Assembly: GCA_937936675.1 (NCBI GenBank)
Contig: CALDDL010000012.1
Coordinates: 2,670-66,669, forward strand
Origin: an uncultured bacterium
GTDB lineage: Bacteria > Bacteroidota > Ignavibacteria > Ignavibacteriales > Melioribacteraceae
Length of the DNA stretch: 64,000 bases
Direction: 5' to 3'
In this document: positions 2,968 to 53,232 of the stretch, one piece after another
Layout of the letters: every line of letters begins with the position of its first letter
Position numbering within the stretch: position 1 is the stretch's first letter
Position numbers and translations under genes: made by a program
The notes under the pieces: model-generated
What the model saw: only the letters and a program-made list of their open reading frames with translations
The model's database searches: none
Told to the model about the DNA's origin: nothing

Positions 2968-4962
2968 TTATTTTAGATATAAAAGTTTTTTATTTAGAAC
3001 CGTACCATTTATTTTTAATGAATAGATATAAGAGCCCGAAGAAATGGATTCACCTAAATCATTCGTACCGTTCCAATAGATGTTATTTCTTCCTACCGAA
3101 GCGATTCCGGAAAATAGTGTTTTTATTTTCTCACCTAGTACATTAAAAACTTCCACTTCGGCATAAGTATTATCTTTCGATAAAAAAGTTATTAAAGTAG
3201 AACCATTGAATGGATTAGGATAATTTTGAACTAGAATATATTCTTCCGGCAGGACTACTTCTTCTTCGCTCTTTGCAGAGGTTAAAATATTGAGTTTCCC
3301 GCCAAACATTTTATAGCTTTTTTCCGAATTTGCCGGTTCACGCTTGCTAAGACCTTCACTAGATTCATAGGTGAAATAAAAAATAATTGATTCATCATTT
3401 ACGAATTGAGGTAAATTAGATGTAAAGATAAAACCACCTTGATAATTCATTGCAATCACCTGCTCAATACCGCTGCTCCCCTTAAAGTGTAATTTAAGAG
3501 TTTGAAGATTCATTTGGTTCGGATTCTGAAAAGCTTTTGTAAGAACGATATTCCCATTTGATTCTCTTAAATGTGGATAAGTAATTGCCTTTAATGCTGA
3601 AACAATTCCCCAACCGATATCATTATTCGGAGATTCAGAATTGCTAGCCGATTGCATCATTATCTCACGAACTTGAGTATTTTTAAGATAGGGATAAGCT
3701 GACATTAATAGAGCGGTAACACCCGCAGCAATAGGACAAGAAAAAGAAGTCCCACTGCCATAGCTATAATTTCCTGAAGTCGTTACACGATAAGTATTAG
3801 AACCTTGCGCAGCGATCTCAGGCTTTATTCTTCCATCAGAAGTTGGTCCAAAACTACTGAAATAGGATATGCCTCCGGATCCTGTAACCGAACCAACCGA
3901 AAGAATATTAAAAGCATCTGCCGGAGTGGTAATATAACCCCAAGAAGTACTTCTTTCATTACCTGCCGAAGTAAAAGTAACTACACCCTTTCCAAATGCA
4001 ATATCCGTTGCTTTAGATACTAATGAGGTGGACCCATTCATATCAGAATAAGAATAAGAACGTTGATCTTTATCGAAAGTGGAATAACCTAAAGAGCTGC
4101 TTGTTAAATCAACTCCCATGCCTTCAAGCCATTCCATTGCTGCTACATAATTATCTTCTTCTATATTAGTTTCCGTGGGGACGTATTCAGTTTTTGCTAA
4201 GGCATATTGTGCATTAAACGCCGGTCCTATCATTTCGCCATTTTGAAATCCGCCTATTAATGAAAATACAGAAGTGCCATGGCTATCTTGATCCAGGACG
4301 TCTCCGCTTTCATTTGACGTTACGCCATCTTTTTGAACAAAATCATATTCGGCAACTACATTTCTACCTTTTAGAGGAGGATTCGATTTCCATCTAAATC
4401 CTGTATCTAATAAACCAATAAAAACTCCTTCGCCAGTTATTCCCATATCGTGAACAAAAGGCACATCGGATAATATATTTTGATTTAATGACGAGCCATA
4501 ATCATAAGTAAAGTTAGGAGAAGATTTATCATTACCTTCTGGTATTGTACCAATTAGATACGAATAATTGGATTCACTTTTAAGTGTTTTTATTATCTCA
4601 ATTTTTTCTACAAATGGTAGTGAAAGCAATTCATTATATTCATCAGAAGTTAAAAAGGCAGATACCGCATTAAACCATTTTAGTTTATGAACAATCTCAA
4701 TACCTTTTCCTGATATCTGATCAATATAATCGCTATTAATTTTAATATCCGAATAATCTATATAATCTTCGCCAAGAACTTTTTTCCTTCTTTCAATAGC
4801 TTTAGAAGAAAGCTCTTTTTCGGCTTCTTTATAATATTCGGAAGTTTTATTTAATCTATCTTTATAATCTATTCCCTTGTCTTTGAAATAGATCATATAT
4901 TTCGTTTGGGCAGATATACTTATTGAAACAAAAAAGAAAATAAATAGAATAGTTCTTTTCAT
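2968..4962 (-). CDS. Secreted S8 (subtilisin-family) serine peptidase with T9SS C-terminal sorting domain
   Basis: Signal peptide MKRTILFIFFFVSISISAQ. Catalytic triad contexts are GLLDTGF (Asp), SHGTSV (His) and GTSFSCP (Ser). The C-terminus reads NYPNPFNGSTLITF....NKKLLYLK, a Por_Secre_tail-like CTD. Confidence 0.85.
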   Translation of the reverse strand: MKRTILFIFFFVSISISAQTKYMIYFKDKGIDYKDRLNKTSEYYKEAEKELSSKAIERRKKVLGEDYIDYSDIKINSDYIDQISGKGIEIVHKLKWFNAVSAFLTSDEYNELLSLPFVEKIEIIKTLKSESNYSYLIGTIPEGNDKSSPNFTYDYGSSLNQNILSDVPFVHDMGITGEGVFIGLLDTGFRWKSNPPLKGRNVVAEYDFVQKDGVTSNESGDVLDQDSHGTSVFSLIGGFQNGEMIGPAFNAQYALAKTEYVPTETNIEEDNYVAAMEWLEGMGVDLTSSSLGYSTFDKDQRSYSYSDMNGSTSLVSKATDIAFGKGVVTFTSAGNERSTSWGYITTPADAFNILSVGSVTGSGGISYFSSFGPTSDGRIKPEIAAQGSNTYRVTTSGNYSYGSGTSFSCPIAAGVTALLMSAYPYLKNTQVREIMMQSASNSESPNNDIGWGIVSALKAITYPHLRESNGNIVLTKAFQNPNQMNLQTLKLHFKGSSGIEQVIAMNYQGGFIFTSNLPQFVNDESIIFYFTYESSEGLSKREPANSEKSYKMFGGKLNILTSAKSEEEVVLPEEYILVQNYPNPFNGSTLITFLSKDNTYAEVEVFNVLGEKIKTLFSGIASVGRNNIYWNGTNDLGESISSGSYIYSLKINGTVLNKKLLYLK

Positions 4963-5908: not shown

Positions 5909-5925
5909 AAGATTACCAAATTCCT

Positions 5926-9658: not shown

Positions 9659-9666
9659 GGAAAAAT

Positions 9667-10317: not shown

Positions 10318-10318
10318 T

Positions 10319-11656: not shown

Positions 11657-11657
11657 A

Positions 11658-14600
11658 TTACCGTATAATAGCAAGTTTATTTATGGAAGTAACCGATTTA
11701 TTATCTTTAATCGAAATTAGTTTGTACAAATATACGCCATTTGCCAATACTTCCCCATCTTCATCTTTACCATCCCAATAAATTCTATTAAAATCATTTT
11801 GCAAGTCAGAACTTGATAATTTTATTTCTTTGATTTTTCTTCCTGTAAGGGTGAAAATATTTACCATCATTTCATCCGGGATCTGTGTTAGCTTAAATGT
11901 GAAATAAGTTGCATCACTAAAAGGGTTGGGATAATTATATACATTATGAATTTCTAAAGAATTAGTAACCTTAAAATTTTTCCGGAGTACCCATTCTTTT
12001 GAATTAATTAAATGACTTTCTTTTAGAGAAAATTCTAAAATATATTCACCATCATCCAATTTTGGTTGATAATTTATATCTACCATAGGGTATGTAAGAA
12101 ATTCATATTTTATTTGTGGATCATTTAGATGAATTTTTTTTCCATTTAGTTTTATTGAAATTAAAGAAGTATCATCCATTATAGTATTATATTGCTCTAA
12201 TACTTTTAAATTCATTTTAGGATTACTGCTTATATAATCCCCATCATAAACTTCATTACCATCAATTTTCAAATCGAGTTTAATAATCAATGGTTCTAAA
12301 TAAAAATGAACTTCCTGCATCAATGTATTATTGTCTTTATATAATTCAGCAATTTGATTTTCAGGATCGATTTCAAAGAATAAAGTTTTTCTGCCCGGTT
12401 GAATTGTAGGAAGATAAATTGAGAATAGACCCTGCTTTGCTGAATGAGGGGATATTAAAGGAATTGTAGATTCAAAAATTCCTTCCGTCTTACCATTATC
12501 ATCCAAGACAGAGCATTTTACCAAAACATTTTCTGCTTTTACCTCTCCAATATTAGCTAATCGAAATGAATAAGAATTTCCATTAATTATTTTTAGTGAG
12601 TCTCCCATTAATTCCTGAAATGTAATATCAAAAGTTAATTCGGGACAAGATTCATATTTTGCTGCAATTGAATAGATTTCTGGTGCCGTAGAAGCATCTT
12701 CACTTGTTAATTGAGATACTAATTTTATGTAACGATATTTCTTTGAATCAATATTGGAGATATCCAATAAAGATAAATCTGAGAATGTATTCAAAGTATC
12801 ATAAACATTCTCACCGTTTTTGCCTAATAAGAAATTATTTATTCGACTATTATTAACTGATTTGGCATTAATCTCCAATGATTTCCATTTAGTCGCAGGC
12901 CCGATATCAATAGTTTTTAATTCCCCCTTGGAGGATTTTAATGAATAATCAGAACTTATCTCTATAGCTCCCTCTGCAGGTGAAGAATAATTTTCTTTGA
13001 CTTCTGATGAATTAGCATTTTTCCATCCTATCATTGCCCAAGAACTTCGGAATTTTAATTTATCTATGTAGCAGCTACCAAAGGACTTTATTTTTGTTAT
13101 TAATTCTTGGTCAGTAATTTTTCCATCATCAGAGATGGCGAATGCCATCAAATAATTTGATGAAAGAGTATCCAATAATTTCTTATAATTTTCTATTACT
13201 TCTTTTCCACCTCCGTAAGTATTAAAATAATAATAATTTATAAAGCGAATATCTTTTTTATCGAAGACAGCAATATGATGCCCTACCTTATAATTTTCCG
13301 GGACATAGTTGGTATCATTCTTTAGAATCAATGCACTTCTTCCATCATGGAATCCCGCTGATTTTACTACTAATTTAATATCCTTGTTCGATAAAATAAG
13401 AGCTTTATTTTTATAACTGAGATTTGAAATCTGTTGTTTTTCAAACCCAGTCGAATCGGAAATTAAAAAATCATATTTATCTGTTTTTATAAATGAGTAA
13501 ATCGGACTAGTAAAATCTTTATCCGCTACTTTAATCCAATATCGTTCTTCCTCCGGAAATTGATTTAATGGAATTACTGTATATGGTTTACTCAAAAATG
13601 AATTATAAACTTTATGATTGGTGAAGTCTGATTTTGCAGAAATATAATATTGAGCTTTAGAGAAATCAATGTTTGGGGGATTAATGAAATATATTGAATC
13701 CTTTATACAATTTTCATAACTGTAGTCGAGAATTGGAAGATACTTGCTCATATTAACAAAAAAACTATATTCAAATGAATTATCATTTTCATCAAACTCA
13801 TCTATTTTATTTGCAGAATCTAAATTAAAAATTAGTGTATGTTTACCGGGTCGATTTTTAATAGGTACAAAAAAACTTATTGAATCTTTTAAGATTGGCA
13901 GAGACAGAAAATAATTTCTTGATGTTGTTTTATCATAAATGTATGATAGAATTAATTGAAAAGAATCTTTTAAAGCACGTCCAATATTTTTATAGACTAG
14001 ACTAAATTGAACCGAATCTTCCAATTCAGATAAATTATTTAAATCCTTTTCCGATGTAAGTTTTTCAATTTTCAAATTTGGTTTGTCTGGAAGCCGTAAT
14101 TGAATAATTGGATCGCCTATTATTATACTAGTAAGAGAAAACAGTTTAGCAATTTCCGAATATCCACTATTTTTTATCAGTTCAGATTTTGTTTTAATAA
14201 GAGATTCCGAAATACAGTGAGATGAATCTTTAAGCAAAAATGTATAAAATAGTTTAGGGGCTTCTATCGCAGTAGAAATAAATCCTGCCGATGAATTACC
14301 TATATATGAAATTGCACTGCTATTTTCTCCTACAGTCATTAGCTCTGCAAATGATGTTACATCTGGTTCTGCGAATTTTGCAGTTACACATCCAAAATCA
14401 GTAACTAACGAAGCTTTATCAAATTTGTTTTTTAACTGAGCTGGTTCTGTGATTGTATTATCCCAAGTTCGTGTCCCACTATGTCCTATATAAGATATAA
14501 ATAATCCACCATCCTGAATTTTTTCGGATACATATTCCGGTGAGTAATTACCAAAATTTGTTAAGGGAGAAATGGTTTTATAGAAATGATAATATTCACC

Positions 14601-16373
14601 TCCGATTGGAGAAGGTGCAACGAGACTATCAATTACATAAGAATTTACATTTCTTAATTTATCCAATTCTGCTTGGCTATCACCTTTCCCACCCGAAAAG
14701 AAAAGAAATCTTTTATTCCAATCTGTATATTCTGAATTAAGATATTCTTTATGTCTCTGAAAGTATCGATCAAATTCTTCTATACTTTTTATTGGTAATC
14801 GACCGATTTTGATTCCCTGAACGAGTGGATTAGAATCAAGAATGCCAAACCAATTATCACTTACCGGTGCTCCATAAGACGCGACATAATTTTTCACTTC
14901 AGAGAATCCACCATTAATATGCCGGTAACTATAATAATCATGAGTAGCCGAGCCTACAAGTAACAGATATTCTATTTTGGGAGATGACCAATATTTATAT
15001 GCATGTCGAATAAAGCTCCTAATAGATTCAGGGTTAAATTCTCCATAAGAAAATTGGTCATAAATATTTTCGACATCTACTACTTTTACTATTTTGTTAT
15101 AATTATTTTTTATAAAGTCAGAATATTCTTTTGATTTTGGAATAAAGGGCTCGGCAGTTAATATTATATATTCTGCCACATTTGAGCTATTGAATAAATT
15201 TTCAATAAAAGAACTTATTCCAACAATACGGGGTTTAGATATTCTTGATTCAGATTTTATGAAGACTTTAATACTATCCGAAACATAAATAGGAAATTCT
15301 ATAATTCTATTAGTGGAAATAACAGAATATTTTTTAGTGCTATCACCTACTAACCATATTGAATAATTATCGGAAATTGCATTCTCAATAGATACTGAAT
15401 GTCTTTCTTTAATTCTTGTTAACTGAAAATGTAGAGAATCATTTTTTAATTTTATTCGACGAGGATACTCAATTTCAAACCAATCAAATAAAGTTGAGTT
15501 TAGTAATCCACCGGTCGGGAAAGAGTATATTTGTATCGAATTACTCCCCTCTTTTAAAAGATTAGCTTTATCCGATGAATTAAGTACTACATGCTTCGCT
15601 TTATTTATATAAGTTGAGTCATAATATTTATTTTGATTATTAATGCCAAGAGCAACAAGATGCGAATTTGTTTGAAGATCAGTCCCGAAGCTTTGAAGTT
15701 TTGCATAGAAATAAAATGGCTTATCTTTCATAATATCTGAGCATATAAAATTTTGACTAATTTTACCACCTGCATTTAGTAACCCTTGCGACCACGTCTC
15801 ATTCTCAATCCAGTCCGGCAATTCTTTTCTTACCAAATTATCTACCGAATAATCGAATACATTATTCTGTTCTAAATGAATTATGGAATAATAGGAATCA
15901 AGAAGTGGATAATTTCTTATTTCCGGCAGGTATGAACCAATATGATTTCCCGGCTCTCCTTCCCAACTAATAAAGTATGTCGTGGAATCTGTATATCTAT
16001 TTAGATACTCATTATATGGATGATTGTACTCTGCAACCTCTCTATGCTTGCCACCATAGTTCCGATAGCCAATAAATTCAATAAAATCATTTTCTTCTAA
16101 CCACGGATAGCCGTCATCTTTCACATAAATTGGAATTTGCTCTCCATGATAAAATATTTTTAATTTAGAGCAATCAACTGAAGATAGATTTATCCCGAGC
16201 TTCTTAAAATCTTCCCCATATATTCGATAAATATCATCGGCTCCCACTTTTAATTTAATATAGGTAGAATTTTCATTAAACCACTTCGTCTGAGCAAATC
16301 CTAAATTAATAATGATGAAAAACAAAAGTAGGGTTGTACCGAAACTTCTATGATTAATTTTGAAATAGCTCAT
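11658..16373 (-). CDS. Very large C25-family (gingipain/PorU-like) cysteine peptidase with T9SS C-terminal domain
   Basis: The preferred start is Met28 of the track ORF (MSYFKINHRSFGTTLLLFFIIINLGFAQ signal peptide). A His/Cys dyad context, YIGHSGTRTW...(about 28 aa)...DFGCVTAKF, resembles the C25 catalytic pair. The C-terminus reads NYPNPFSDATYFTF...NKLAIIR, a T9SS CTD. Confidence 0.7.
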   Translation of the reverse strand: MSYFKINHRSFGTTLLLFFIIINLGFAQTKWFNENSTYIKLKVGADDIYRIYGEDFKKLGINLSSVDCSKLKIFYHGEQIPIYVKDDGYPWLEENDFIEFIGYRNYGGKHREVAEYNHPYNEYLNRYTDSTTYFISWEGEPGNHIGSYLPEIRNYPLLDSYYSIIHLEQNNVFDYSVDNLVRKELPDWIENETWSQGLLNAGGKISQNFICSDIMKDKPFYFYAKLQSFGTDLQTNSHLVALGINNQNKYYDSTYINKAKHVVLNSSDKANLLKEGSNSIQIYSFPTGGLLNSTLFDWFEIEYPRRIKLKNDSLHFQLTRIKERHSVSIENAISDNYSIWLVGDSTKKYSVISTNRIIEFPIYVSDSIKVFIKSESRISKPRIVGISSFIENLFNSSNVAEYIILTAEPFIPKSKEYSDFIKNNYNKIVKVVDVENIYDQFSYGEFNPESIRSFIRHAYKYWSSPKIEYLLLVGSATHDYYSYRHINGGFSEVKNYVASYGAPVSDNWFGILDSNPLVQGIKIGRLPIKSIEEFDRYFQRHKEYLNSEYTDWNKRFLFFSGGKGDSQAELDKLRNVNSYVIDSLVAPSPIGGEYYHFYKTISPLTNFGNYSPEYVSEKIQDGGLFISYIGHSGTRTWDNTITEPAQLKNKFDKASLVTDFGCVTAKFAEPDVTSFAELMTVGENSSAISYIGNSSAGFISTAIEAPKLFYTFLLKDSSHCISESLIKTKSELIKNSGYSEIAKLFSLTSIIIGDPIIQLRLPDKPNLKIEKLTSEKDLNNLSELEDSVQFSLVYKNIGRALKDSFQLILSYIYDKTTSRNYFLSLPILKDSISFFVPIKNRPGKHTLIFNLDSANKIDEFDENDNSFEYSFFVNMSKYLPILDYSYENCIKDSIYFINPPNIDFSKAQYYISAKSDFTNHKVYNSFLSKPYTVIPLNQFPEEERYWIKVADKDFTSPIYSFIKTDKYDFLISDSTGFEKQQISNLSYKNKALILSNKDIKLVVKSAGFHDGRSALILKNDTNYVPENYKVGHHIAVFDKKDIRFINYYYFNTYGGGKEVIENYKKLLDTLSSNYLMAFAISDDGKITDQELITKIKSFGSCYIDKLKFRSSWAMIGWKNANSSEVKENYSSPAEGAIEISSDYSLKSSKGELKTIDIGPATKWKSLEINAKSVNNSRINNFLLGKNGENVYDTLNTFSDLSLLDISNIDSKKYRYIKLVSQLTSEDASTAPEIYSIAAKYESCPELTFDITFQELMGDSLKIINGNSYSFRLANIGEVKAENVLVKCSVLDDNGKTEGIFESTIPLISPHSAKQGLFSIYLPTIQPGRKTLFFEIDPENQIAELYKDNNTLMQEVHFYLEPLIIKLDLKIDGNEVYDGDYISSNPKMNLKVLEQYNTIMDDTSLISIKLNGKKIHLNDPQIKYEFLTYPMVDINYQPKLDDGEYILEFSLKESHLINSKEWVLRKNFKVTNSLEIHNVYNYPNPFSDATYFTFKLTQIPDEMMVNIFTLTGRKIKEIKLSSSDLQNDFNRIYWDGKDEDGEVLANGVYLYKLISIKDNKSVTSINKLAIIR

Positions 16374-17430
16374 AATACTGTTCGGCGACTGTTTTCCAAT
16401 TATACTTTTCATTAATATATTCCTTTGCAAGAATTTTAATTTGACTATAATCAACTTTGTTGGATTCTATATTATTTATTTGATTGGTAAATGTTTTTTT
16501 TTCAAATAACAATCCATATTTATCAGAAATTACTTCTTTATTATAAATAGTATTAAGTGCTAAGGTAAGTGCTCCGTTTCCTAGTGCTTGAAGCAATATT
16601 GGATTTGTACCACCAAATTCATGTCCATGTAAATAACAAAAACAGTTTTTTAATAAATGATTTATTCTGCTAATGCTTGTTACCAATCCCAATTTGACTA
16701 TTCTATTATCTTCTATCTGAATAATTTCATTATGATAATTATCTGATTTTTTTAATTCCCCAACAACTACTAATCGCTTATTAGTGTTAGATTTGAGCAA
16801 CTGTCTTATTAAAAAAAGTATATTATTATCAGGAATAATTCTTCCAATTATTAGATAATATGAATTAGTTTCAAACTCAATCGCCTCACTTTCAGAGATA
16901 TAAGTATTTGCTCCATAACTGATATTTTTTGTATCTATTTTGAATTGATTTTTATAGAAAGAGGATATTTCTTTTGAATCGGCAATTAGATGATGAGCAC
17001 AAATTTTTGAGATTCGAGCAGAAATATAAAAATAACCTTTCCCAATTATATTCCATTTCTTGCGCCTCCATTCAATTCCGTCAACGCAAATAATTATTTT
17101 TCTGGAAGTAAATACTTTCTGCAAAAAAGCAAAAGGTGCATTTGCAATATTGACATAAAGGATAATATCACATTTAATAAAAAAAGAATGAAAAGTTGAT
17201 TTGAAGGAATGAATAAATTGGGCAAGATTTTTTCTTTCTAATGTACTTATATTTATTCTTGAAATTTTATTTGAATCATAAGATTCCAAGAGTTTTATAG
17301 TATGCGGTCGTTCATACACAATAAAATTAATATCTCTATCAGACATATTAATTATAAGTTCTCTTATAAAGGTTTCAAATCCTCCATAGACAACATTGAA
17401 TCCATGAGAACCGATAATGGCTATATTCAC
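16354..17430 (-). CDS. Glycosyltransferase family 4 with N-terminal DUF1972-type domain
   Basis: GTG start. The N-terminus NIAIIGSHGFNVVYGGFETF matches the DUF1972 signature (IIGTRGIP..YGGFET). The C-terminal EFGGTNPILLQALGNG is GT-B/GT4-like. Confidence 0.8.
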   Translation of the reverse strand: MNIAIIGSHGFNVVYGGFETFIRELIINMSDRDINFIVYERPHTIKLLESYDSNKISRINISTLERKNLAQFIHSFKSTFHSFFIKCDIILYVNIANAPFAFLQKVFTSRKIIICVDGIEWRRKKWNIIGKGYFYISARISKICAHHLIADSKEISSFYKNQFKIDTKNISYGANTYISESEAIEFETNSYYLIIGRIIPDNNILFLIRQLLKSNTNKRLVVVGELKKSDNYHNEIIQIEDNRIVKLGLVTSISRINHLLKNCFCYLHGHEFGGTNPILLQALGNGALTLALNTIYNKEVISDKYGLLFEKKTFTNQINNIESNKVDYSQIKILAKEYINEKYNWKTVAEQYYELFQN

Positions 17431-30057: not shown

Positions 30058-31113
30058 CTATCTACGAGATCTATCTCCGCCTCTGCTGCTACCGCTACTA
30101 TTTCCACTGCTGCCGCTTGATCTTGAAGGAGAATCGCTTCCTCTACTAGGTGCTGATGCAGGTGGAGGATTATAGCTTGGACTCGGGCTCGATGAAGGCG
30201 GTGGACTATAACTTCTTGGTGATTCGCTCGAACGTGATGAACTTCCTGAACTTCTCCTGCTCGCTCCATCGTTATCTCTTGTCCTAGGTCTTGTTGGTGT
30301 AGTTGACCTTCTATTACTTGGAGAATCCGATCTGCTGCTTGGTCTTTCTCTTTTTACTGCTTCACCTTTTTTAGGAATTTGAGTTTTATTATCTTTATCT
30401 CTTATAGTACCACTTTTAGAAGTATTTCCTCCACTTCTTGAAACTCCGCTTCTGTTTAAATCGACAGTATTACCATCTCTTCCGCTGCTTCTTCTAAATG
30501 AACCATTAGAAGTATTTCCGGCAGTTCTATCGCTGCCTGTTCTATTTCTCCTCGTGTCATAATTTCTCTCACCGTCTCTACCTCTCGTACGAGCAAAATC
30601 ATTCGTGCGGTATTTATATGGCGATTTAGCGGTATAGTTATTCCAATTATTATAATGAGGATAGTACCATGGTGAATAATAAGAATATGGGTAATACCAA
30701 GGTGCATAATATCCCGGTGTCATATAATATGAGTAGCCCCAATAAGTATCATAATAATTATAATAACATGGATCATAACCCCATGACAATGATACCCCTA
30801 CCGATGGATAATATCCATAAAGATATCTTCTATAAGGCATGTAACTATATGTATTCGAATTTAATATTGATACATTTCCATAAGAATCAATATAAATATC
30901 CTGACCGGTAGAATAATCATCATAATACTGATCATCATCGTAGTATTCTTCAGAATATTCATCGTTTTGGTAATCACTATTTTGATCGTTACTATCTTCA
31001 TAAGCATAACGGTCATTACGTTCCGGTCTCTCTCCCCTCATTGCCACTTGGGTATAACATCCGGTAGCAAATATGGAAAGTGCAACTATTAATATTTTCA
31101 ATGAGGTCTTCAT
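30058..31113 (-). CDS. Low-complexity lipoprotein: Tyr/Asp-rich middle, Ser/Arg/Pro-rich C-terminal half (no recognised family)
   Basis: Lipoprotein-type signal MKTSLKILIVALSIFATGC. Residues about 35-165 are extremely Tyr-rich (YYNYYDTYWGYSYYMTPGYYAPWYYPYSYYSPWYYPHY). Residues about 170-351 are S/R/G/P/N-rich and end GGDRSRR. This is the only long frame with a signal peptide in the region. Confidence 0.6.
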   Translation of the reverse strand: MKTSLKILIVALSIFATGCYTQVAMRGERPERNDRYAYEDSNDQNSDYQNDEYSEEYYDDDQYYDDYSTGQDIYIDSYGNVSILNSNTYSYMPYRRYLYGYYPSVGVSLSWGYDPCYYNYYDTYWGYSYYMTPGYYAPWYYPYSYYSPWYYPHYNNWNNYTAKSPYKYRTNDFARTRGRDGERNYDTRRNRTGSDRTAGNTSNGSFRRSSGRDGNTVDLNRSGVSRSGGNTSKSGTIRDKDNKTQIPKKGEAVKRERPSSRSDSPSNRRSTTPTRPRTRDNDGASRRSSGSSSRSSESPRSYSPPPSSSPSPSYNPPPASAPSRGSDSPSRSSGSSGNSSGSSRGGDRSRR

Positions 31114-31256: not shown

Positions 31257-32024
31257 TTAAAAAATGCCTCTTACGAACTCAATATATAGACCTCTATCTG
31301 CTTTATTTCCGATGAGCTTTTTATTTGATAACATATCTCTTAGATTTAGTCCAATCGTAAGCCCATTACCTATAGTCCATCTAATACCAAGATTAAGATA
31401 TCCCGATCCATCACCTATCGATTTTGATCCATTATCATTTATTGCAAAATCATATTCTCCAATAATTGAAACCTGCGTACCAATGGTTTTTTCAATTCCC
31501 AAACCCATATTTAAGTCTTTATCGCCATCTTGTCTTTCAAAGGAATAATTAAGTAATCCATGGAAACTGATATATCCGAGAAATTCAAAATTTTTGGAAG
31601 CAGCAACGAAAAGTCCCGGAGATTTTAATTCGTATCTTTTATCATTCTTATCGTAAAAACCTTTCCCTTGGGAATCAAAGCCGATAGTAATAGCCGGAAC
31701 GGACTCAGTCTCGTCAAATAATCTTCCTCTTACGTTCACACCGGGTAATTCATACATCGTTACTTTGCCAGTACCGATAATATTGCTTCCGCCATAAGAA
31801 ATGCCGAAGCTAAAATTCTCGAACACGCCAACTTCCAATTTAGTAACTACTGTACCGAAGGGCATAAAATCAGTAGAAATTCCTGCATAGCCTTTTTCTA
31901 ATATTCCCGCAGTAGGAAGATCAATTAAATAACGATATTCAAACTTAGCATCCGTACCTCCGGAACCTTGTCCGCTAATAAGAGTAACAGCTATTAAAAG
32001 AAATGCCAATATTTGCTTTTTCAT
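31257..32024 (-). CDS. Small outer-membrane beta-barrel protein (unknown family)
   Basis: Signal peptide MKKQILAFLLIAVTLISGQ, alternating hydrophobic beta-strand pattern, and C-terminal ...FVRGIF. Confidence 0.5.
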   Translation of the reverse strand: MKKQILAFLLIAVTLISGQGSGGTDAKFEYRYLIDLPTAGILEKGYAGISTDFMPFGTVVTKLEVGVFENFSFGISYGGSNIIGTGKVTMYELPGVNVRGRLFDETESVPAITIGFDSQGKGFYDKNDKRYELKSPGLFVAASKNFEFLGYISFHGLLNYSFERQDGDKDLNMGLGIEKTIGTQVSIIGEYDFAINDNGSKSIGDGSGYLNLGIRWTIGNGLTIGLNLRDMLSNKKLIGNKADRGLYIEFVRGIF

Positions 32025-32056: not shown

Positions 32057-33463
32057 CTAACTTTTTTTGAATGTAGAACCAGTTTTACCATCCTGTATTT
32101 GAATACCGAGTTTACTCAATTTATCTCGAATTTCATCTGCTAACTGATATTGCTTTTCTTGTTTTAATCTTATCCTTAATTCAAGGAATAATTGAATTAG
32201 TGCATCTTCAATACCTGATTCTTTTCCTTGGCTAAGATTCTCAATATGTAAAATTCCAAGTACGTCTTGAGCAGTCTTCTTTAGGAATTCAATTATTCCT
32301 TGATAAAAATTTTTGCCGGGATTATTATCTGCAATATACTTATTAGCGTCTTTAATAAACTCAAAAATAACTGCTAATCCTTTCGGAGTATTAAAATCAT
32401 CATCAACTGCTTTTTCAAAATCAGAATAATATTTTTCAAATATAAATTCACTCTTGTTCTCATTAAGTGACGGATTCTTTAAAAAACTAAGAGAACTAAG
32501 AACAAGATTATTTAGTTTCTCTAGTCCTTTCTCGGCAGAAGCTAATAAATCATCCGAGAAATTTAATGGTCCAGAATAAATTGTTTGAGCGAAAAAGAAT
32601 CTTATAGTTTCTGCAGAATATTTTTTTAGTACATCACGAGCAGTAAAAAAATTACCAAGTGACTTGGACATCTTTTCATTATCTATATTAAGGAAACCAA
32701 AATGAATCCAATATTTGGCAAATTGCTGATTTGTGGAAGCTTCGCTTTGTGCAATTTCATTTTCGTGATGCGGGAAAATTAAGTCGCTTCCACCGGCATG
32801 GATATCGATCGATTTACCTAAATGTTTCATCGCCATAGCAGAGCATTCAATGTGCCAGCCGGGACGTCCCTTACCCCATGGACTTTCCCATGATGGTTCT
32901 CCTTCCTTGACTTTTTTCCATAAAGAAAAATCGAGCGGATTTTTTTTCTCTTCATTAATTTCCACTCGAGCACCAGATTCTAAATCGTCTATATTCTTAC
33001 CGCTTAATTTACCGTAAGAAGGGAATTTCTTTACATCATAAAAAACATTTCCATCAACGTTATAAGCTATATTCTTCATCTCTAAATCTTTTATCAACTT
33101 GATCATTTCTTCTATGTGATCAGTAGCGTAGGGATAAATATCGGCTTTTTTTATTTTTAATTTTTCGATGTCAATAAGGAATTCCCCCGAATATTTTTTA
33201 GAAAATTCCGATGCACTTATTTTTTCTTCATTGGCTTTTTTGATTATCTTATCATCCACATCCGTTATATTCATTGCGAAGCGAACTTTGAAACCTTTAT
33301 ATATAAGATAGCGCCGAATCATATCAGAAACTATAAATGTTCTTGCATTTCCGATATGGAAAAAATCATAAACGGTCGGACCGCATACATACATTGTTAC
33401 ATTTGGCGGGTTTAAGGGTATAAATTCTTCTTTTTTCCTAGTAAGCGTGTTATAAATTTGCAT
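32057..33463 (-). CDS. cysS: Cysteine--tRNA ligase
   Basis: 468 aa with the HIGH-type motif GPTVYDFFHIGNAR and KMSKSLGN. Confidence 0.97.
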   Translation of the reverse strand: MQIYNTLTRKKEEFIPLNPPNVTMYVCGPTVYDFFHIGNARTFIVSDMIRRYLIYKGFKVRFAMNITDVDDKIIKKANEEKISASEFSKKYSGEFLIDIEKLKIKKADIYPYATDHIEEMIKLIKDLEMKNIAYNVDGNVFYDVKKFPSYGKLSGKNIDDLESGARVEINEEKKNPLDFSLWKKVKEGEPSWESPWGKGRPGWHIECSAMAMKHLGKSIDIHAGGSDLIFPHHENEIAQSEASTNQQFAKYWIHFGFLNIDNEKMSKSLGNFFTARDVLKKYSAETIRFFFAQTIYSGPLNFSDDLLASAEKGLEKLNNLVLSSLSFLKNPSLNENKSEFIFEKYYSDFEKAVDDDFNTPKGLAVIFEFIKDANKYIADNNPGKNFYQGIIEFLKKTAQDVLGILHIENLSQGKESGIEDALIQLFLELRIRLKQEKQYQLADEIRDKLSKLGIQIQDGKTGSTFKKS

Positions 33464-33602
33464 TTTTTACCTGAAATTGAACTTAAAAATATACAAATAG
33501 AGTAATTTGTAATCAACTATTAAAAAAAGAAGATTTATTTCGATAATACAAAATAGGATAAAAGGATAATAAAGATTTTTTATTTTTTTTGTTATTTAGA
33601 CT

Positions 33603-33630
33603 TTGACATCTTTATATTTTTTTATAGATT
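33603..33630 (+). promoter_or_regulatory. Candidate sigma-70-type promoter for the cytochrome gene
   Basis: TTGACA at 33603-33608, a 16-nt spacer, then TAGATT at 33625-33630. A strong AGGAGG SD precedes the ATG at 33728. The region is AT-rich, so a chance match is quite possible. Confidence 0.3.
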
Positions 33631-33727
33631 AAACGAGTAAATAAGAAAATATTAGTCAAATGTCTTTTTATAGTAAAAAACAAGATTTTAATATCGAATT
33701 AACAATACAAACCCCAGGAGGAGCTGT

Positions 33728-35725
33728 ATGATTAGAAGGTTAACTGCATTTACCTTGATCTCTTTGCTTCTAACCACAGTTGTTTATTCACAGACAATGA
33801 GTCTAACAACTTACGGTGTATCACCAAGAGAAGCGAATTTAAACGCAACTGATATTTTTACCGTTCAGTATAACGGATTAAAGAATGTCGGCGTTAATAG
33901 TAAAATCTATTTAAAAGCAACACTAAGCGGTGCAAGATTAAAAGCACCGGTATTTTCAATAGTAGAAAAACCTGCCGGTTCTACTGCTGCTTATGGCGGA
34001 ACAATTGAAGGCGGTTTAGATTCTTCAAATACTGTGATTCCATTTACCCCTGATGTTGTGGGTAAATATATCCTTAGAGTTAAAGACGGCAGCTATCAAG
34101 CAGATATCATTATCAATGCCGCTAAATATGTTGGTGTTGAAAAATGTAAAGACTGTCATAAATTTGCAGGCTTTGGTGGAGAAATTGTTGAAGCATGGCA
34201 AAAAACCGGACACGCAAACCAGATGAAAGAAGCATTCAATGGTGAATATAGCAGTCATTTCCAAGAATTTTGTTTAGCATGCCATGCAACCGGTTATGAT
34301 AAAAAAGCCGCAAATGATGGTTTTGATGATTTCCCGTTCGTATATCCGGCAGTATTAGCTCCGGGCGTTTATGATCAAACAGCTGCTATGTATCCTGAAG
34401 CTATGAAATTAGCAAACGTTCAGTGCGAAGCTTGTCACGGTCCAGGAAGTGTTCATGCTTCTTCACCTCTTAACTCAAAAGAAAATTCAAAAATCTCCGT
34501 AACAATGAGCTCAGATAATTGTGCTTACTGTCATGATAATGGTGCACATCACGTATTTGCTGAACAATGGGATTATTCTGCTCACGCAAACCCAACTAGC
34601 TACCCTGCTGGTCCTGGTCGTGAAAGCTGTGTTAGATGCCACACAGGTTCAGGTTTCAAACAATTCGTTGATGGCGTTCCTACAACCAGTACAGATCCAA
34701 CTTTTGATGCAATCTCATGTGCAAGCTGTCATGAACCTCATAGCAATGCTAATTCTCATCAATTAAGAAAAACAAGCGTTAAATTAGGAAATGGCGAAGT
34801 TGTTGATGGCGGTGGAAACGGAAGACTTTGCATGAACTGTCATCAGAGCCGTCAAAATGCTGCTACATATACAGTAAAATCGGCTTCTCATTATGGACCA
34901 CACTATGCTACACAAGCTGACGTTCTTGTAGGTACAAACGTTGTAACTTGGGGAGCTACAATTCCAAGTACGAAGCATTTCAATGTTACAGAAGATGCAT
35001 GCGTTACATGCCACATGTATCCTGATCCTGCAGGCGCTGCTAAAAAAGCAGTTCATCAAGGAGCTCACACATTCAGTATGAGAGATATAGATACAGGCGT
35101 AGCTAATATGGATGCTTGCGCAACTTGCCACGGTGGTTCTCTAGGTCTTGATTTCCATGATGTTAAGTTCTTCTATAAAGGAACTGGCGATCATGATGGT
35201 GATGGTGTTACTGAAGGATTACAGGAAGAAGTTCATGGTTTAATTGAAAAAGTTAGTGCTTTATTACCAAATCCTGATCCACATGCTGAAACTTCAACTG
35301 CATGGACTAAAGTTCAATTAGAAGCTGCTTATAACATCAGAACAATCTATTATGATAATAGCTGGGGAATTCACAATCCTAAGTTCACTATTGAATTATT
35401 AAATACAACTTGGAAAGCATTAAATGGTATTACTGACGTTGATGAAAACGAACTAATTCCTACTGAATTTACAGTTTATCAGAACTATCCGAATCCATTT
35501 AATCCAACTACGAATATTAAATTCTCTATTCCAAAAGCATCTAATGTAAAAGTTATTGTTTATGACGCTATCGGTAGAGAAGTTAGACAATTAGTAAATA
35601 ATGAATTGAACGCAGGAACACATACAATTCAATTTAACGCTTCTAACTTAGCTTCAGGTATCTATCTATACAGAATCGAAGCAGGCGACTTTACTAAAGT
35701 TAACAAGATGTTATTAATAAAATAA
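33728..35725 (+). CDS. Multiheme (nine CxxCH) c-type cytochrome with T9SS C-terminal sorting domain
   Basis: Signal peptide present. Nine heme-binding motifs: CKDCH, CLACH, CEACH, CAYCH, CVRCH, CASCH, CMNCH, CVTCH, CATCH. The C-terminus reads NYPNPFNPTTNIKFSIP....VNKMLLIK, a Por_Secre_tail-type CTD. Confidence 0.9.
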   Translation: MIRRLTAFTLISLLLTTVVYSQTMSLTTYGVSPREANLNATDIFTVQYNGLKNVGVNSKIYLKATLSGARLKAPVFSIVEKPAGSTAAYGGTIEGGLDSSNTVIPFTPDVVGKYILRVKDGSYQADIIINAAKYVGVEKCKDCHKFAGFGGEIVEAWQKTGHANQMKEAFNGEYSSHFQEFCLACHATGYDKKAANDGFDDFPFVYPAVLAPGVYDQTAAMYPEAMKLANVQCEACHGPGSVHASSPLNSKENSKISVTMSSDNCAYCHDNGAHHVFAEQWDYSAHANPTSYPAGPGRESCVRCHTGSGFKQFVDGVPTTSTDPTFDAISCASCHEPHSNANSHQLRKTSVKLGNGEVVDGGGNGRLCMNCHQSRQNAATYTVKSASHYGPHYATQADVLVGTNVVTWGATIPSTKHFNVTEDACVTCHMYPDPAGAAKKAVHQGAHTFSMRDIDTGVANMDACATCHGGSLGLDFHDVKFFYKGTGDHDGDGVTEGLQEEVHGLIEKVSALLPNPDPHAETSTAWTKVQLEAAYNIRTIYYDNSWGIHNPKFTIELLNTTWKALNGITDVDENELIPTEFTVYQNYPNPFNPTTNIKFSIPKASNVKVIVYDAIGREVRQLVNNELNAGTHTIQFNASNLASGIYLYRIEAGDFTKVNKMLLIK

Positions 35726-35750: not shown

Positions 35751-35784
35751 AAAAAAGCTGCCTCAAAAGGGCAGCTTTTTTTTG
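35751..35784. terminator. Rho-independent terminator (bidirectional form) after the cytochrome gene
   Basis: An A-run, stem AGCTGCC (35756-35762), 7-nt loop, stem GGCAGCT (35770-35776), then a run of 8 T. It lies between convergent genes. Confidence 0.8.
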
Positions 35785-35949: not shown

Positions 35950-36933
35950 TTATCTTTTTAATTTCTTTAAGAGCAGTTTAAAGTCTTCAGGGAGTTCCGA
36001 TTCAAAGAAAAGTTTTTCTTTTGTTCTGGGGTGTATAAAACCCAAGGTCTTTGCATGAAGTGCCTGTCTTGTCATAATATCTAATAAATTATCTACACGA
36101 GTCTTCATCTTGGGAAGCTCAAGTCCATAAGCAATTCTTCTTCCACCATATACAGGGTCGCCAAATATGGGTCTATTTATATGCGATAGATGCACTCTAA
36201 TTTGATGTGTCCTGCCGGTTTTTAATTTTAATTTTACCAGTGAAGCAAATTCAAATTCTTCTAATACTTCATAAAATGTATGGGCATGCTTACCTTCTGT
36301 TTCGCTTACTGTAAATACTTTTCTATCTTTATTGCTTCGTGTAATATTAGCAATTATTTCACCCTTCGGTTCTTTGAATATACCCCAACAAACTGCCCAA
36401 TATTCTCTTTCGATTGTGTGATGAAAAAATTGTTTTGCTAATTGCGCATGCGTCCACTCATCTTTTGCCACCAGCAGAATACCGCTTGTTTCTTTATCTA
36501 TACGATGTACTATTCCCGGTCGGGTCTGTTCATCATTTAATTTGCTAAGCTTATTTGTATGGTGAAGAAGTGCATTTACTAACGTACCCGTAAAATTTCC
36601 TAATGAAGGATGAGCTACCATTCCTGCGGCTTTATTTACCAATAAAAGATATTCATCTTCATAAATAATATCCAATGGAATATCTTCCGCTTCTGTAAAT
36701 TCGGGACGAGGTGAAGTGGGAATTACAACATCAATTATATCGCCGGCATTAACTATATAATTTGACTTAATTATATCTCCGTTTACACGGACGCATTCTG
36801 CTTTTATTAATTTTTGGATTCTTGTTCGGGATGCATTTTCAATAGAATTTGTAAGGTAAAGGTCTATTCTTTCCTTCTTTTTGCCTGCCGGAATTTCAAT
36901 ATGTATTTTTTTTTCAGTTACTAATTTTGCCAT
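35950..36933 (-). CDS. rluD: 23S rRNA pseudouridine synthase, RluD subfamily
   Basis: N-terminal S4 domain, catalytic motif HRIDKETSGILLVAK, and RTHQIRVH. Confidence 0.9.
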   Translation of the reverse strand: MAKLVTEKKIHIEIPAGKKKERIDLYLTNSIENASRTRIQKLIKAECVRVNGDIIKSNYIVNAGDIIDVVIPTSPRPEFTEAEDIPLDIIYEDEYLLLVNKAAGMVAHPSLGNFTGTLVNALLHHTNKLSKLNDEQTRPGIVHRIDKETSGILLVAKDEWTHAQLAKQFFHHTIEREYWAVCWGIFKEPKGEIIANITRSNKDRKVFTVSETEGKHAHTFYEVLEEFEFASLVKLKLKTGRTHQIRVHLSHINRPIFGDPVYGGRRIAYGLELPKMKTRVDNLLDIMTRQALHAKTLGFIHPRTKEKLFFESELPEDFKLLLKKLKR

Positions 36934-50643: not shown

Positions 50644-53232
50644 ATGTATAAAAAGATTACTATAATCAATAGCCTATTTCTAATCATATTTATTTTTACA
50701 TCAGTTCAAATCCTAGGTGAAGGAGGGAATAAAAAAAATTCTCCACTTCAAAAAACCAACGGCGTGCCATCTTATACAAAATTTAATATTAATAACATTT
50801 CGACATGGTTTAAGAACGATGGCGAATCTGATATTAATCAAAATGGGAACTCCGGATTTGAATATCCCAAAGGCAGCAGGAAGAATGCCATTTTTCAATC
50901 CGGTTTTTTATGGGGCGGTAAAGTAGATGGACAAGTAAGAGTAGGCGGATCTGCGTATCGGCAAGGAACGGTACCGGGTAGAGTTATTAAAAATGCTCAG
51001 AATAAATGGGAAGCCGTTAGGCCAAACGATCCTGATGTAAGAATTTATAGAGTAAGACCCGATTATAAAAAAGCTCATCTTAGTGCCGAGATAAAAGACG
51101 GTGATGGAAAAAACGAGAAGGAAATTAGAGCACAATATGAAAAAGATTGGAAGGAATGGCCGGCAGCTCAAGGTGCTCCATATAAAGATGTAAATAAGGA
51201 TGGTGTTTATGACCCTAATATTGATATACCCGGAGTAGAAGATTCTCATCAAACAATCTGGTTTATTTGTAATGATTTTGATAATAAAGCCACAGACTTT
51301 ATGTATGGTTCGCCTCCAATGGGCATCGAAGAACAGGTTACAATCTGGGGCTATAAAACTAAAGGTGCTCTTAACAATATGCTCTTTAGAAAATATATTA
51401 TTATAAATAAAAACATAGATGAAAAACCTTTCACTGATATGTATGTTTCGATGTGGAGCGATCCTGACCTTGGTAATGCAAGTGATGATTTATCCGGCTG
51501 CGATTCAACATTGAGCTTAGCATATATTTATAATGGAAATAATACTGATGCCGTGTATGGAGAAGATGTTCCTGCTGCTGGATTTGATTTTCTGCAAGGT
51601 CCTATTGTAACCGGACTTCCAGGTGATACTGCAATATTTAATAACAAATATATTTCTGGCAAAAAAAATCTTCCTATGACGGCATTTTATTTCTTTACTG
51701 GCGGTGATAACATTTATACTGATCCAGCACAAGGGGTCTATCAAACAGGTACACTATTATTTTATAATTATATGAGAGGATTAAGTCCGGCTACTAAGCA
51801 ACCTTATATTGACCCAATAACATTAAAGCCAACATATTTCCCTCTTTCAGGAGACCCGGTTAAAGGTACCGGCTGGTTAGATACTTATAAGGCAGACCGC
51901 CGATTTGGTATTGCTTCCGGTCCTTTTAATATGGCTTATGGTGATACACAAGAAATTATAATTGCTGAAATCGCAGCAGGAGCCACTCGAGGTGTTGATC
52001 GTTTAGAAGCAATTACTTTATTAAAAGACTATGATGGTGCGGCACAATTTGCTTATAATAATTTATTTAATTTACCGGGTACATCTGAGCAGCCCGAAGT
52101 TATTGCTACCGGTTTAGATAAAGAAATAATTTTATCTTGGGGAGCAGACTTTGAAGCCGTTAATAAAGGTGAAAACTATAATGCTGCAGGGTTCCGGTTT
52201 GAAGGTTATAACGTATATCAACTTCCCTCCTTTTTTGCTCTCGAAAGTGAAGCAAAAAGAATAGCTACTTTTGATATAAAAAACGGAGTGAAGACTATTA
52301 TTGGTTCAAATTATGATAATGAAAAAAATCTTTGGTTGGATTATGTTGCTGCTTTTGGATCGGACTCGGGAATCAAAAGATATATTTCTATTAAAAATGA
52401 TGCTTTTAATGGTAACCTTCCACTTAATAATGGACAAAAATATTATTTCGCAGTTACTTCATATACATATAATGACAATCCTCCTTTTAGTCCAAACACT
52501 TATGAGAATCCAATAAAAATAATTGAAGTGATTCCAAAATCAATGGACCCCGGAGTTAGGTATCCGGCAGAACAGGGAGCAATTATTCATGGTATTCATT
52601 CTTCAGGTACGAGTAGCGGTGATCTTAATGTAACGGTCATCGATCCTACTTTAGTAACCGGCGACAAGTATCAAATTTCATTTCAAGAAAATGGAGCATT
52701 GGGAATTACATACACAATTACAAATCTTTCAAAGGATACTGTTTTAGCATCGGAGGTAAATCAAAATCTTGGGGAAGCGTCTCCTTTGATAGACGGTTTA
52801 CTTATATCTGTTTTTAATCCATCTCAAATTGAAAAACAAAATAAAATTTCCGATATATTTGAGTTTACATCTCCTTCAATAATAAAAGACAATAAATTGG
52901 CAAAAGCAGATGTGGAAAATATAAACGTTTTTCCTAATCCATATTACGGATGCAATCCGCAGGAGATAAATAAATATCAGCGCTTTATTACAATAAATCA
53001 TCTTCCTGCAAAAGCTACGATACGCATTTTTAATCTTGCTGGACAGTTGATTACAACAATTGATAAGAACGATCCGAACACACAATTCCAGAGATGGACT
53101 TTGACAAATGACGGCGGATATCAAGTCGGCAGCGGAATTTATATTATTCATATCGATATGCCCGATCTAGGGGCAACAAAAGTGCTTAAAGCTGCTATAA
53201 TACAGGAGCAGCAGATTTTGGATAGATTTTAA
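50644..53232 (+). CDS. Large secreted protein of unrecognised family with FN3-like segment and variant T9SS-type C-terminal domain (paralogue A)
   Basis: 862 aa. Signal peptide MYKKITIINSLFLIIFIFTSVQILG, preceded by a GAGGAG SD. No catalytic family motif recognised. The C-terminus reads NVFPNPYYGCNPQEINKYQRF...TKVLKAAIIQEQQILDRF. Confidence 0.75.
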   Translation: MYKKITIINSLFLIIFIFTSVQILGEGGNKKNSPLQKTNGVPSYTKFNINNISTWFKNDGESDINQNGNSGFEYPKGSRKNAIFQSGFLWGGKVDGQVRVGGSAYRQGTVPGRVIKNAQNKWEAVRPNDPDVRIYRVRPDYKKAHLSAEIKDGDGKNEKEIRAQYEKDWKEWPAAQGAPYKDVNKDGVYDPNIDIPGVEDSHQTIWFICNDFDNKATDFMYGSPPMGIEEQVTIWGYKTKGALNNMLFRKYIIINKNIDEKPFTDMYVSMWSDPDLGNASDDLSGCDSTLSLAYIYNGNNTDAVYGEDVPAAGFDFLQGPIVTGLPGDTAIFNNKYISGKKNLPMTAFYFFTGGDNIYTDPAQGVYQTGTLLFYNYMRGLSPATKQPYIDPITLKPTYFPLSGDPVKGTGWLDTYKADRRFGIASGPFNMAYGDTQEIIIAEIAAGATRGVDRLEAITLLKDYDGAAQFAYNNLFNLPGTSEQPEVIATGLDKEIILSWGADFEAVNKGENYNAAGFRFEGYNVYQLPSFFALESEAKRIATFDIKNGVKTIIGSNYDNEKNLWLDYVAAFGSDSGIKRYISIKNDAFNGNLPLNNGQKYYFAVTSYTYNDNPPFSPNTYENPIKIIEVIPKSMDPGVRYPAEQGAIIHGIHSSGTSSGDLNVTVIDPTLVTGDKYQISFQENGALGITYTITNLSKDTVLASEVNQNLGEASPLIDGLLISVFNPSQIEKQNKISDIFEFTSPSIIKDNKLAKADVENINVFPNPYYGCNPQEINKYQRFITINHLPAKATIRIFNLAGQLITTIDKNDPNTQFQRWTLTNDGGYQVGSGIYIIHIDMPDLGATKVLKAAIIQEQQILDRF

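Follow-up and report, generated by a model that had tools for sequence, protein, structure and literature searches.

The stretch of DNA analyzed here (hereafter the window) comprises 64,000 nucleotides of contig CALDDL010000012.1 from an uncultured bacterium of the Melioribacteraceae. On its forward strand, it carries a gene for a multiheme cytochrome that ends in a type IX secretion system (T9SS) C-terminal domain (CTD). The coordinates of the gene, its parts and the related features are collected in Table 1. At the level of sequence, the analysis confirmed that the product is a real, conserved, Sec-type c-type cytochrome with nine hemes, and that its CTD is genuinely a type-A domain of the T9SS. 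CxxCH was counted exactly nine times in the protein (Cys 140, 182, 233, 265, 301, 331, 368, 425 and 464), and all 18 of its cysteines fall inside these motifs; no CxxCK or Cx3-4CH motif was found in its sequence. Among the open reading frames (ORFs) of at least 80 residues in the window, CxxCH occurred in the cytochrome ORF alone. By inspection, the signal peptide begins with MIRR, continues into a hydrophobic stretch and ends in VYS before a Gln, and it has no lipobox Cys. This Gln (Q22, the predicted +1 residue) is kept in at least 90% of the cytochrome family, in agreement with the Q-rule, which has been described for Bacteroidetes and for Ignavibacterium (77% in Ignavibacterium album).

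Table 1. Coordinates of the cytochrome gene, its predicted parts and signals, and the T9SS-related genes of the window.
Feature	Position	Strand	Basis or remark
Candidate promoter	33599..33630	+	promoter scan and five-region intergenic alignment
Shine-Dalgarno sequence AGGAGG	33716..33721	+	6 nt 5' of the ATG
Nonaheme cytochrome ORF	33728..35725	+	665 aa, ATG start
Predicted Sec (signal peptidase I-type) signal peptide, residues 1-21 (MIRRLTAFTLISLLLTTVVYS, then Q)	33728..33790	+	sequence inspection
N-terminal all-beta (Ig-like) domain, residues 22-131	33791..34120	+	AlphaFold2 model, Foldseek, conservation
Nonaheme core, residues 132-497	34121..35218	+	nine CxxCH, eight near-invariant extra His, HH 274/275
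C-terminal helical bundle, NrfA/OcwA type, residues 498-564	35219..35419	+	AlphaFold2 helices and NrfA alignment
Flexible linker, residues 565-586, probable CTD cleavage region	35420..35485	+	low model confidence; predicted cleavage site
T9SS type-A CTD, residues 587-665 and stop codon	35486..35725	+	hidden Markov models, structure model, Foldseek
Hairpin of an intrinsic terminator, AAAAAAGCTGCCC...GGGCAGCTTTTTT, which may act in both directions	35751..35781	+	terminator scan
S8 subtilase with T9SS type-A CTD (cargo)	2968..4962	-	Peptidase_S8, 1.3e-44
PorU-related C25 peptidase, 1598 aa, candidate T9SS sortase	11658..16454	-	hidden Markov models and PDB match
862-aa protein with CTD-like C-terminus (probable cargo)	50644..53232	+	TIGR04183, 23.3 bits (cut-off 23)

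The protein was modeled with AlphaFold2 as a heme-free chain, in a first, weaker model (m2403d687ca28) and in a better one from 101 sequences (md6fa28fe889a), with a predicted local distance difference test score (pLDDT) of 86.9 and a predicted template modeling score of 0.77. The better model consisted of a signal helix, an all-beta part (23-132), the heme core, helices (498-564), a disordered segment (570-589) and a CTD sandwich (594-663). In the N-terminal domain, strands were placed at residues 23-28, 53-55, 60-67, 75-80, 101-106, 112-120 and 123-132 (pLDDT about 76-96), and the residues conserved in the family include L51, V54, G55 and G112. Foldseek returned marginal Ig-like matches for this domain, namely SbsC, intimin and GbpA (E about 4e-3 to 1e-2). 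The bundle was formed by helices 498-510, 528-543 and 551-564, and the pLDDT was below 50 at residues 570-589 in both models. An earlier note on this DNA had described a Sec signal peptide, nine CxxCH motifs, an Ig-like beta domain in the first 130 or so residues and a textbook Por_Secre_tail CTD. The inspection and the motif count agreed with the first two, the better model supported the third as an all-beta sandwich, and the profile comparison for the fourth gave scores above both curated cut-offs.

In that comparison, residues 587-661 of 665 matched Por_Secre_tail (PF18962) with 46.9 bits against a cut-off of 27, and the TIGR04183 match reached residue 662 of 665 with 44.9 bits against a cut-off of 23. 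The CTD was modeled as a beta-sandwich (strands 594-601, 605-612, 618-627, 630-637, 644-652 and 655-663; pLDDT about 75-89), and in the Foldseek search with the first model it matched the CTD of mirolase (8QB1, TMt 0.69) and PorZ (5M11). Two of its residues, G616 (in YDAIGRE; compare FDMNGRR in RgpB) and K660 (in NKMLLIK), were invariant among 101 sequences. Previous work has reported that the Gly of the beta3-beta4 loop motif, as in RgpB, and the Lys of the last strand matter for secretion in Porphyromonas gingivalis (PMC11285876); here, G616 and K660 are equated with these determinants by motif position rather than by structural superposition. The ending NKMLLIK also resembles the KLIKK ending of Tannerella (PMC11285876). 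The cytochrome shares the CTD models, the fold, the key residues and the Sec signal peptide with type-A cargo such as RgpB, mirolase and HBP35. The T9SS cargo described so far, however, consists of proteases, adhesins, glycanases and motility proteins, whereas the present one is a multiheme cytochrome.

More than 1,200 relatives were retrieved from the database, and the best 120 all had E values below 1e-177. Among these 120 homologs, the CTD was present in 119 (the exception is a 434-residue fragment), exactly nine CxxCH motifs were found in 111, and six were 18-heme tandem versions. The six (P0003, P0013, P0023, P0024, P0028 and P0038) are 1,055-1,098 residues long, have 18 CxxCH motifs in what appear to be tandem duplications of the nonaheme unit, and bear the CTD at the end. 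In the database, the relatives are named 'T9SS type A sorting domain-containing protein', 'multiheme c-type cytochrome, partial' or 'hypothetical'. Their sources are Ignavibacteriaceae, Melioribacteraceae, Calditrichaceae, KSB1 and metagenome-assembled genomes (MAGs) of Bacteroidota, with one cultured isolate, Melioribacteraceae 4301-Me (WP_436271878.1). In the conservation alignment of 101 sequences (44-96% identity), all nine CxxCH motifs were invariant, as were the CTD core N586-P593, G616, K660 and K665. Seven additional His residues (162, 243, 286, 338, 417, 447 and 549) were also invariant, and H392 was conserved at 99%. Against a 96%-identical relative (GCA_034003865.1), the ratio of nonsynonymous to synonymous substitution rates (dN/dS) was 0.066 overall, and dN was 0 in the CTD. 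The gene is under purifying selection.

Beyond these close homologs, the database was searched exhaustively with a query from which the CTD had been cut: 354 clusters (50% identity) scored E<=1e-30, and the looser threshold of E<=1e-10 gave 1,134. The CTD was present in only 60 of 149 divergent representatives, always at the extreme C-terminus, and the remaining representatives had the same core with lipoboxes, thrombospondin type 3 (TSP3)-repeat tails or PKD/filamin modules. Because the CTD-less relatives bear other extracytoplasmic tags, the core is common and the localization tag varies by lineage. This supports a modular view, in which one nonaheme core is combined with lineage-specific tags (CTD, lipobox, TSP3-repeat tail or S-layer association). 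A group of CTD-less relatives from high-GC genomes (P0149, P0164, P0184, P0189, P0201, P0206, P0208, P0232 and L001 9929-12229) shares a recurrent tail, ...[RK]F[FY]RV...P, which often follows bacterial TSP3 repeats and may be an uncharacterized sorting or anchoring module. In a contig scan with the family alignment, the cytochrome part was matched only by L001, L002, L003 and L020, and the NYPNPFNP pattern drew the CTDs of unrelated cargo; L020 appears frameshifted and was left out of the analysis.

To place the heme core, the family profile was compared with the multiheme families of the PDB, a comparison that the earlier note had proposed. The sequence profiles ranked OcwA first (6I5B, E 4.5e-18), followed by OmhA (6QVM, E 5.4e-10 over about 300 residues) and then by the NrfA chains 2J7A, 2VR0 and 1OAH (about 5e-9), to which profile positions 418-569, that is, the last hemes and the helical bundle, were aligned. 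Weaker matches were obtained to octaheme nitrite reductase (ONR), MccA, c554 and TvNiR. Heme motifs 1 and 3-9 aligned in order with OcwA, and motif 2 aligned with OmhA. By these profile matches, the heme core is placed in that branch of the NrfA/c554 multiheme superfamily which holds OcwA and OmhA. OcwA had earlier been placed within a clade of Gram-negative nonahemes, to which the present family very probably belongs as well.

OcwA (TherJR_2595) is a surface nonaheme terminal reductase of Thermincola potens. Six of its hemes are bis-His and one is His-Met coordinated, the other two have open coordination and lie under HH motifs, and the protein has a C-terminal three-helix bundle of the NrfA type (PMC6703420). 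Its HH281/282 and HH380/381 are distal and non-bonding and are conserved in all OcwA/OmhA sequences (Soares 2022). In our alignment, HH274/275 of the cytochrome aligned with HH281/282, and H274 and H275 were conserved in 79% and 91% of 121 sequences, respectively. An invariant candidate distal His can be assigned to no more than eight of the nine hemes, which makes one heme with open coordination plausible; the cytochrome probably has such a heme, exposed to solvent, at HH274/275. The invariant H417 adjoins the position of an OcwA Met (in SVMYK); that this Met is the ligand of heme 9 is our own guess, as the residue is unnamed in PMC6703420. Taken together, OcwA resembles the cytochrome in its nine CxxCH motifs, its C-terminal NrfA-like helices, its HH motif and its known, here predicted, exterior-facing location, but it comes from a monoderm, has neither a CTD nor an N-terminal Ig-like domain, and shows low identity. 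OmhA, an S-layer undecaheme of Carboxydothermus ferrireducens, occurs on the cells as well as on the magnetite that they form, and is only weakly bound. It belongs to the same superfamily clade and is likewise a surface protein at the cell-mineral interface; unlike the cytochrome, it has eleven hemes, an extra N-terminal diheme extension and an S-layer association instead of a T9SS tag.

Membership in the MtrC/OmcA family (Pfam PF22113) was rejected, given the lack of an MtrC-type PDB chain among the matches, the nine hemes and the missing lipobox. The PDB profile search returned no MtrC, MtrF, OmcA or UndA chain at E<=0.1; therefore, the PF22113 match (61.6 bits, partial, in three stretches with the best at profile positions 69-170, and also present in all relatives) was read as a motif-level match to heme-motif spacing. 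MtrC, OmcA and MtrF have ten hemes in two pentaheme domains alternating with beta-barrel domains, and a lipoprotein signal, in place of the nine hemes and the lipobox-free signal peptide of the cytochrome. The NrfA/octaheme nitrite reductases, MccA and c554 belong to the same superfamily, but the cytochrome has nine hemes and extra beta domains at both termini. The CxxCK active-site heme of NrfA and ONR is absent from it, and since all 18 Cys lie in CxxCH motifs, it has neither the Cu-site Cys nor the CX15CH heme of MccA.

The genes on either side of the cytochrome gene, cysS (32057-33463) and an rluD-like gene (35950-36933), are both on the reverse strand; the cytochrome gene, on the forward strand between them, therefore forms its own monocistronic transcription unit. 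A promoter scan found TTGACA (33603-33608) and TAGATT (33625-33630) as the -35 and -10 elements, with 16 nt between them. We aligned the cysS-cytochrome intergenic region with those of four relatives (L081, L084, L086 and L087), whose encoded cytochromes are, with the present one, 48-96% identical. The 14-nt block GACTTTGACATCTT (33599-33612), which holds the -35 element, was invariant in all five regions, and a TAnnTT -10 element lay at 16 nt from the -35 in each of them. The invariant block is good comparative evidence for a predicted promoter dedicated to the cytochrome gene. Because it reaches beyond the -35 hexamer, the block may also be a regulator-binding site. AGGAGG or GGAGG was likewise seen in the alignment of the relatives, and the terminator scan found a stem of 13 pairs (5 GC) followed by a T-run 3' of the stop codon. 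An Rfam scan of the entire window gave no match. The strand layout, the conserved promoter block, the AGGAGG sequence and the hairpin are in line with the claim of the earlier note that the gene is monocistronic with its own promoter, Shine-Dalgarno sequence and terminator. The same note had the gene inserted between cysS and rluD; the cytochrome gene is indeed flanked by cysS and an rluD-like gene, but it is not an insertion. The divergent cysS-cytochrome pair was kept where the cytochromes are 56%, 50% and 48% identical, next to a conserved upstream block encoding a tetratricopeptide-repeat protein, RsgA, a FadL-like protein and two proteins of no known family. A recent insertion between housekeeping genes is ruled out by this synteny; judged from these alignments, the pair is an old arrangement kept across Melioribacteraceae and Ignavibacteriaceae. 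In a Calditrichaceae MAG (L088), from a different phylum, cysS again lies near a cytochrome gene. At this locus (6301-16183), the CTD nonaheme gene has genes for single-domain response regulators and for a sigma-54 two-component system at its sides, and after it comes a nonaheme paralog that has no CTD but a lipoprotein signal (lipobox FFGGC).

Several T9SS-related genes were found in the window. The PorU-related protein, a candidate sortase, matched Peptidase_C25 with an E value of 6.7e-55, and its sole PDB match was P. gingivalis PorU (6ZA2, E 4.3e-9). It is far longer than that protein, with extra ILEI and CARDB domains and a FlgD_ig/CTD-like end. The S8 subtilase carries a CTD that scored 29.8 bits against TIGR04183 (cut-off 23) and 7.7e-18 against a local CTD profile. 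A T9SS has been reported as probably present in Ignavibacteriota (PMC11285876), and Por-domain carbohydrate-active enzymes have been described in Melioribacter.

Taking this evidence together, we put at about even the chance that the protein is a surface or extracellular electron-transfer cytochrome delivered by the T9SS and belonging to an OcwA-like family of the Fibrobacteres-Chlorobi-Bacteroidetes (FCB) group; its export, the removal of the CTD or the anchoring, the ligation of the hemes, the physiological substrate and the function are what we infer here. The protein would be synthesized with its Sec signal peptide and exported by Sec, and in the periplasm the nine hemes would be attached covalently and the cytochrome would fold. 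The T9SS would then recognize the C-terminal beta-sandwich and move the folded cytochrome across the outer membrane; the pore of the T9SS translocon, as seen in the SprA structure, is wide enough for folded domains. A PorU-type sortase could cut the CTD off at the flexible linker, after which the cytochrome would be either attached to the surface or released. By analogy with OcwA and OmhA, both of them surface reductases of Fe(III) or electrodes, it might pass respiratory electrons to Fe(III) or Mn(IV) minerals, humics, flavins or electrodes outside the cell.

The electrons would reach the cytochrome through a separate outer-membrane conduit of the porin-cytochrome type, or through shuttles, encoded elsewhere in the genome, since there is no cytochrome or porin neighbor in the window or at the Ignavibacteriota loci. 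Porin-cytochrome clusters have been reported in Ignavibacteria. The earlier note had proposed a route of extracellular electron transfer (EET) different from the MtrCAB/porin-cytochrome paradigm. This proposal was not sustained: the T9SS explains localization but carries no electrons, so it is a delivery step and not by itself such a route. The parallel is with Shewanella MtrC and OmcA, where a secretion system of type II (T2SS) likewise moves a folded holo-cytochrome over the outer membrane, beside a conduit; these proteins differ from the present one in fold family, in having ten hemes instead of nine, and in using a lipid anchor with a lipobox and the T2SS instead of the T9SS. One distant member of the family (L002; 34% identity, nine hemes, CTD above the cut-off) is encoded in a cluster with a beta-barrel-like ORF (ending ...NHITFRW), two multiheme cytochromes, one of Sec type with 12 hemes and the other a lipoprotein with 14, and a membrane cytochrome that resembles NrfH/NapC. 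In this single case, the gene arrangement looks classical for an EET chain. This candidate cluster (2103-14316, in a 62%-GC MAG) also holds a fused major facilitator superfamily/spermidine synthase gene, and a gene for a 2,079-residue Big_1/invasin-like protein with a CTD-like end lies nearby.

A number of observations weigh against a T9SS-delivered electron-transfer cytochrome. The family is known from sequences alone. Of the two distal OcwA motifs, the second HH site is not conserved, its place being taken by [R/H]388 [F/Y]389 G390 P391 H392, and the His-Met heme 9 of OcwA is not conserved either. A Foldseek search with the first model gave OmhA as the top match (6QVM, E 1.5e-7, TM 0.34), but the top 50 matches of the better model contained no cytochrome, only the marginal Ig-like matches. 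As the structural match was not reproduced, it was treated as non-robust, and we relied on the sequence profiles; fold searches with heme-free models of coil-rich multiheme cytochromes gave unstable results, OmhA being seen with the lower-confidence model only. The promoter is apparently of the sigma-70 type and the context is housekeeping-like, with no hint of anaerobic or metal regulation. For the secretion machinery, the PorU-related protein scored below the cut-offs of both dedicated models (NF052324, PorU2 N-terminal, 334 bits and E 1.6e-99 against 450; NF033707, PorU, 252 bits and E 8.4e-75 against 420), and SprA/Sov and PorK/L/M/N were not found within the 64 kb of the window. No partner cytochrome or porin, such as a porin-cytochrome (Pcc/MtrAB) module, was found in the window or, apart from the lipoprotein paralog of L088, beside the gene at seven loci of Ignavibacteriota, Calditrichaceae and unassigned origin, and no second CxxCH ORF adjoined the gene at L081-L087 or L089; the link to a porin-cytochrome module comes from the one distant locus (L002) only. 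Finally, OcwA-type reduction of nitrite and hydroxylamine, together with the roles in sulfur-compound reduction proposed for relatives, allows for other substrates.

This last point leads to the alternative that fares best, although we consider it unlikely: the protein could be a surface or extracellular catalytic reductase for soluble molecules (nitrite, hydroxylamine, NO, sulfite, tetrathionate or polysulfide), with a detoxifying or respiratory role. It is suggested by the membership in the NrfA/ONR/MccA/c554 superfamily, by HH274/275 at the position of the distal motif of an OcwA open-coordination heme and by the presence of an invariant candidate distal His for eight hemes at most. OcwA/OmhA-related cytochromes of Dethiobacter have been proposed as sulfur-compound reductases, and OcwA reduces nitrite and hydroxylamine in vitro, but it turns nitrite over very slowly (kcat 1 per min; PMC6703420). 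The cytochrome also has no CxxCK and no cysteines left over for a Cu site of the MccA type or a CX15CH heme, no NrfH-type partner is encoded adjacent to it in the Ignavibacteriota loci, and export would bring no obvious gain because small substrates enter the periplasm.

Somewhat less probable still is export by the T9SS followed by release as a soluble shuttle or matrix cytochrome instead of covalent anchoring at the outer membrane. Many type-A CTD cargos of Flavobacterium are released in soluble form, and we know of no demonstration of an anchoring system of the anionic lipopolysaccharide (A-LPS) type in Ignavibacteriota. OmhA, weakly bound and found on the mineral surface, would be a precedent, and the disordered linker ahead of the CTD would suit both fates. 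However, a PorU-related sortase candidate is encoded nearby, and Porphyromonas PorU couples cleavage to attachment (PMC11285876); moreover, losing a freely diffusing 60-kDa cytochrome would be costly.

Electron uptake from extracellular donors, such as Fe(II) minerals, cathodes or partner cells, is improbable. Multiheme chains are reversible, and related cytochrome sets have been tied to Fe(II) oxidation in Dethiobacter, but there is no genomic hint such as Cyc2 or an MtoAB-type neighbor, and the Fe(III) reduction by cultured Melioribacter points in the other direction. The weakest alternative is a cytochrome that stays in the periplasm, with a CTD that is vestigial or has some other role: although we infer the secretion of the family members and some paralogs have no CTD (L088), such a protein is very improbable because the CTD is conserved, being present in all but one of the 120 best homologs with its functional residues invariant and a dN of 0, and being confined to the extreme C-terminus wherever it occurs.

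For a T9SS-delivered electron-transfer cytochrome, the wider implications are as follows. Surface delivery of cytochromes is understood in only a few Proteobacteria, through the T2SS for MtrC and OmcA and pilus-like machinery for the nanowire cytochromes of Geobacter. A full-text literature search, with subscription journals mostly outside its scope, found no paper linking a T9SS/Por sorting domain to multiheme cytochromes or EET, and the omics and genome papers on Melioribacter contain no data on the present cytochrome. A secreted-proteome study described extracellular multiheme cytochromes in Bacteroidota and Ignavibacteria, with T9SS unmentioned. The parts, an OcwA-type cytochrome and a T9SS CTD, are thus known, and their combination is widespread and appears undescribed. 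It is possible, with a likelihood that we put slightly under even, that the T9SS is a general, unrecognized export route for folded, heme-loaded multiheme cytochromes. The hundreds of clusters from Ignavibacteriota, Calditrichota, KSB1 and Bacteroidota, tandem 18-heme forms included, would then be T9SS-delivered surface reductases of the OcwA type, the FCB group's own last step of EET and a Gram-negative stock related to the Gram-positive OcwA. Enrichment of Ignavibacteria and their relatives on anodes and in systems that reduce Fe(III) has been seen repeatedly, yet their outermost electron-transfer components are undefined, and the conserved OcwA-like family with a CTD would be a concrete candidate. 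If the reading is true, the cargo range of the T9SS would extend to redox proteins loaded with covalent cofactors, and a CTD combined with at least four CxxCH motifs would be a simple genomic marker for EET capacity in genomes and metagenomes of the FCB group.

Some further genes of the window were also noted. The 451-residue ORF that follows the PorU-like gene (10319-11674, reverse strand) ends in ...ISF, has no Pfam family and a weak ImpL63 match, and could be a partner of the sortase; its identification as PorV had no support in the profile and PDB searches. The 862-residue protein of Table 1 has no Pfam family, and the PorZ model matched only its C-terminal part. It forms a tandem with a paralogous secreted protein of 749 residues (53284-55533, forward strand), also of no Pfam family; in both, only the C-terminal 90-100 residues are PorZ-CTD-like, and one passes TIGR04183, so that the two may be PorZ-like components or cargo. 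In the conserved block, the FadL/Toluene_X-like outer-membrane protein (28541-29977, reverse strand) has a weak match to BamG. It was rejected as PorV, since its PorV/PorQ match is weak at 55 bits, short of the cut-off of 90, and the PDB search gave a weak match to TolC. Two other products of the reverse strand have no family match: a predicted lipoprotein of 351 residues (30058-31113) with extremely low complexity, one half of which is rich in Tyr and Asp and the other in Ser, Arg and Pro, and, next to it, a beta-barrel-like protein of 255 residues (31257-32024) that ends in ...FVRGIF. Both are kept in the block by cysS and the cytochrome gene down to 48% identity.

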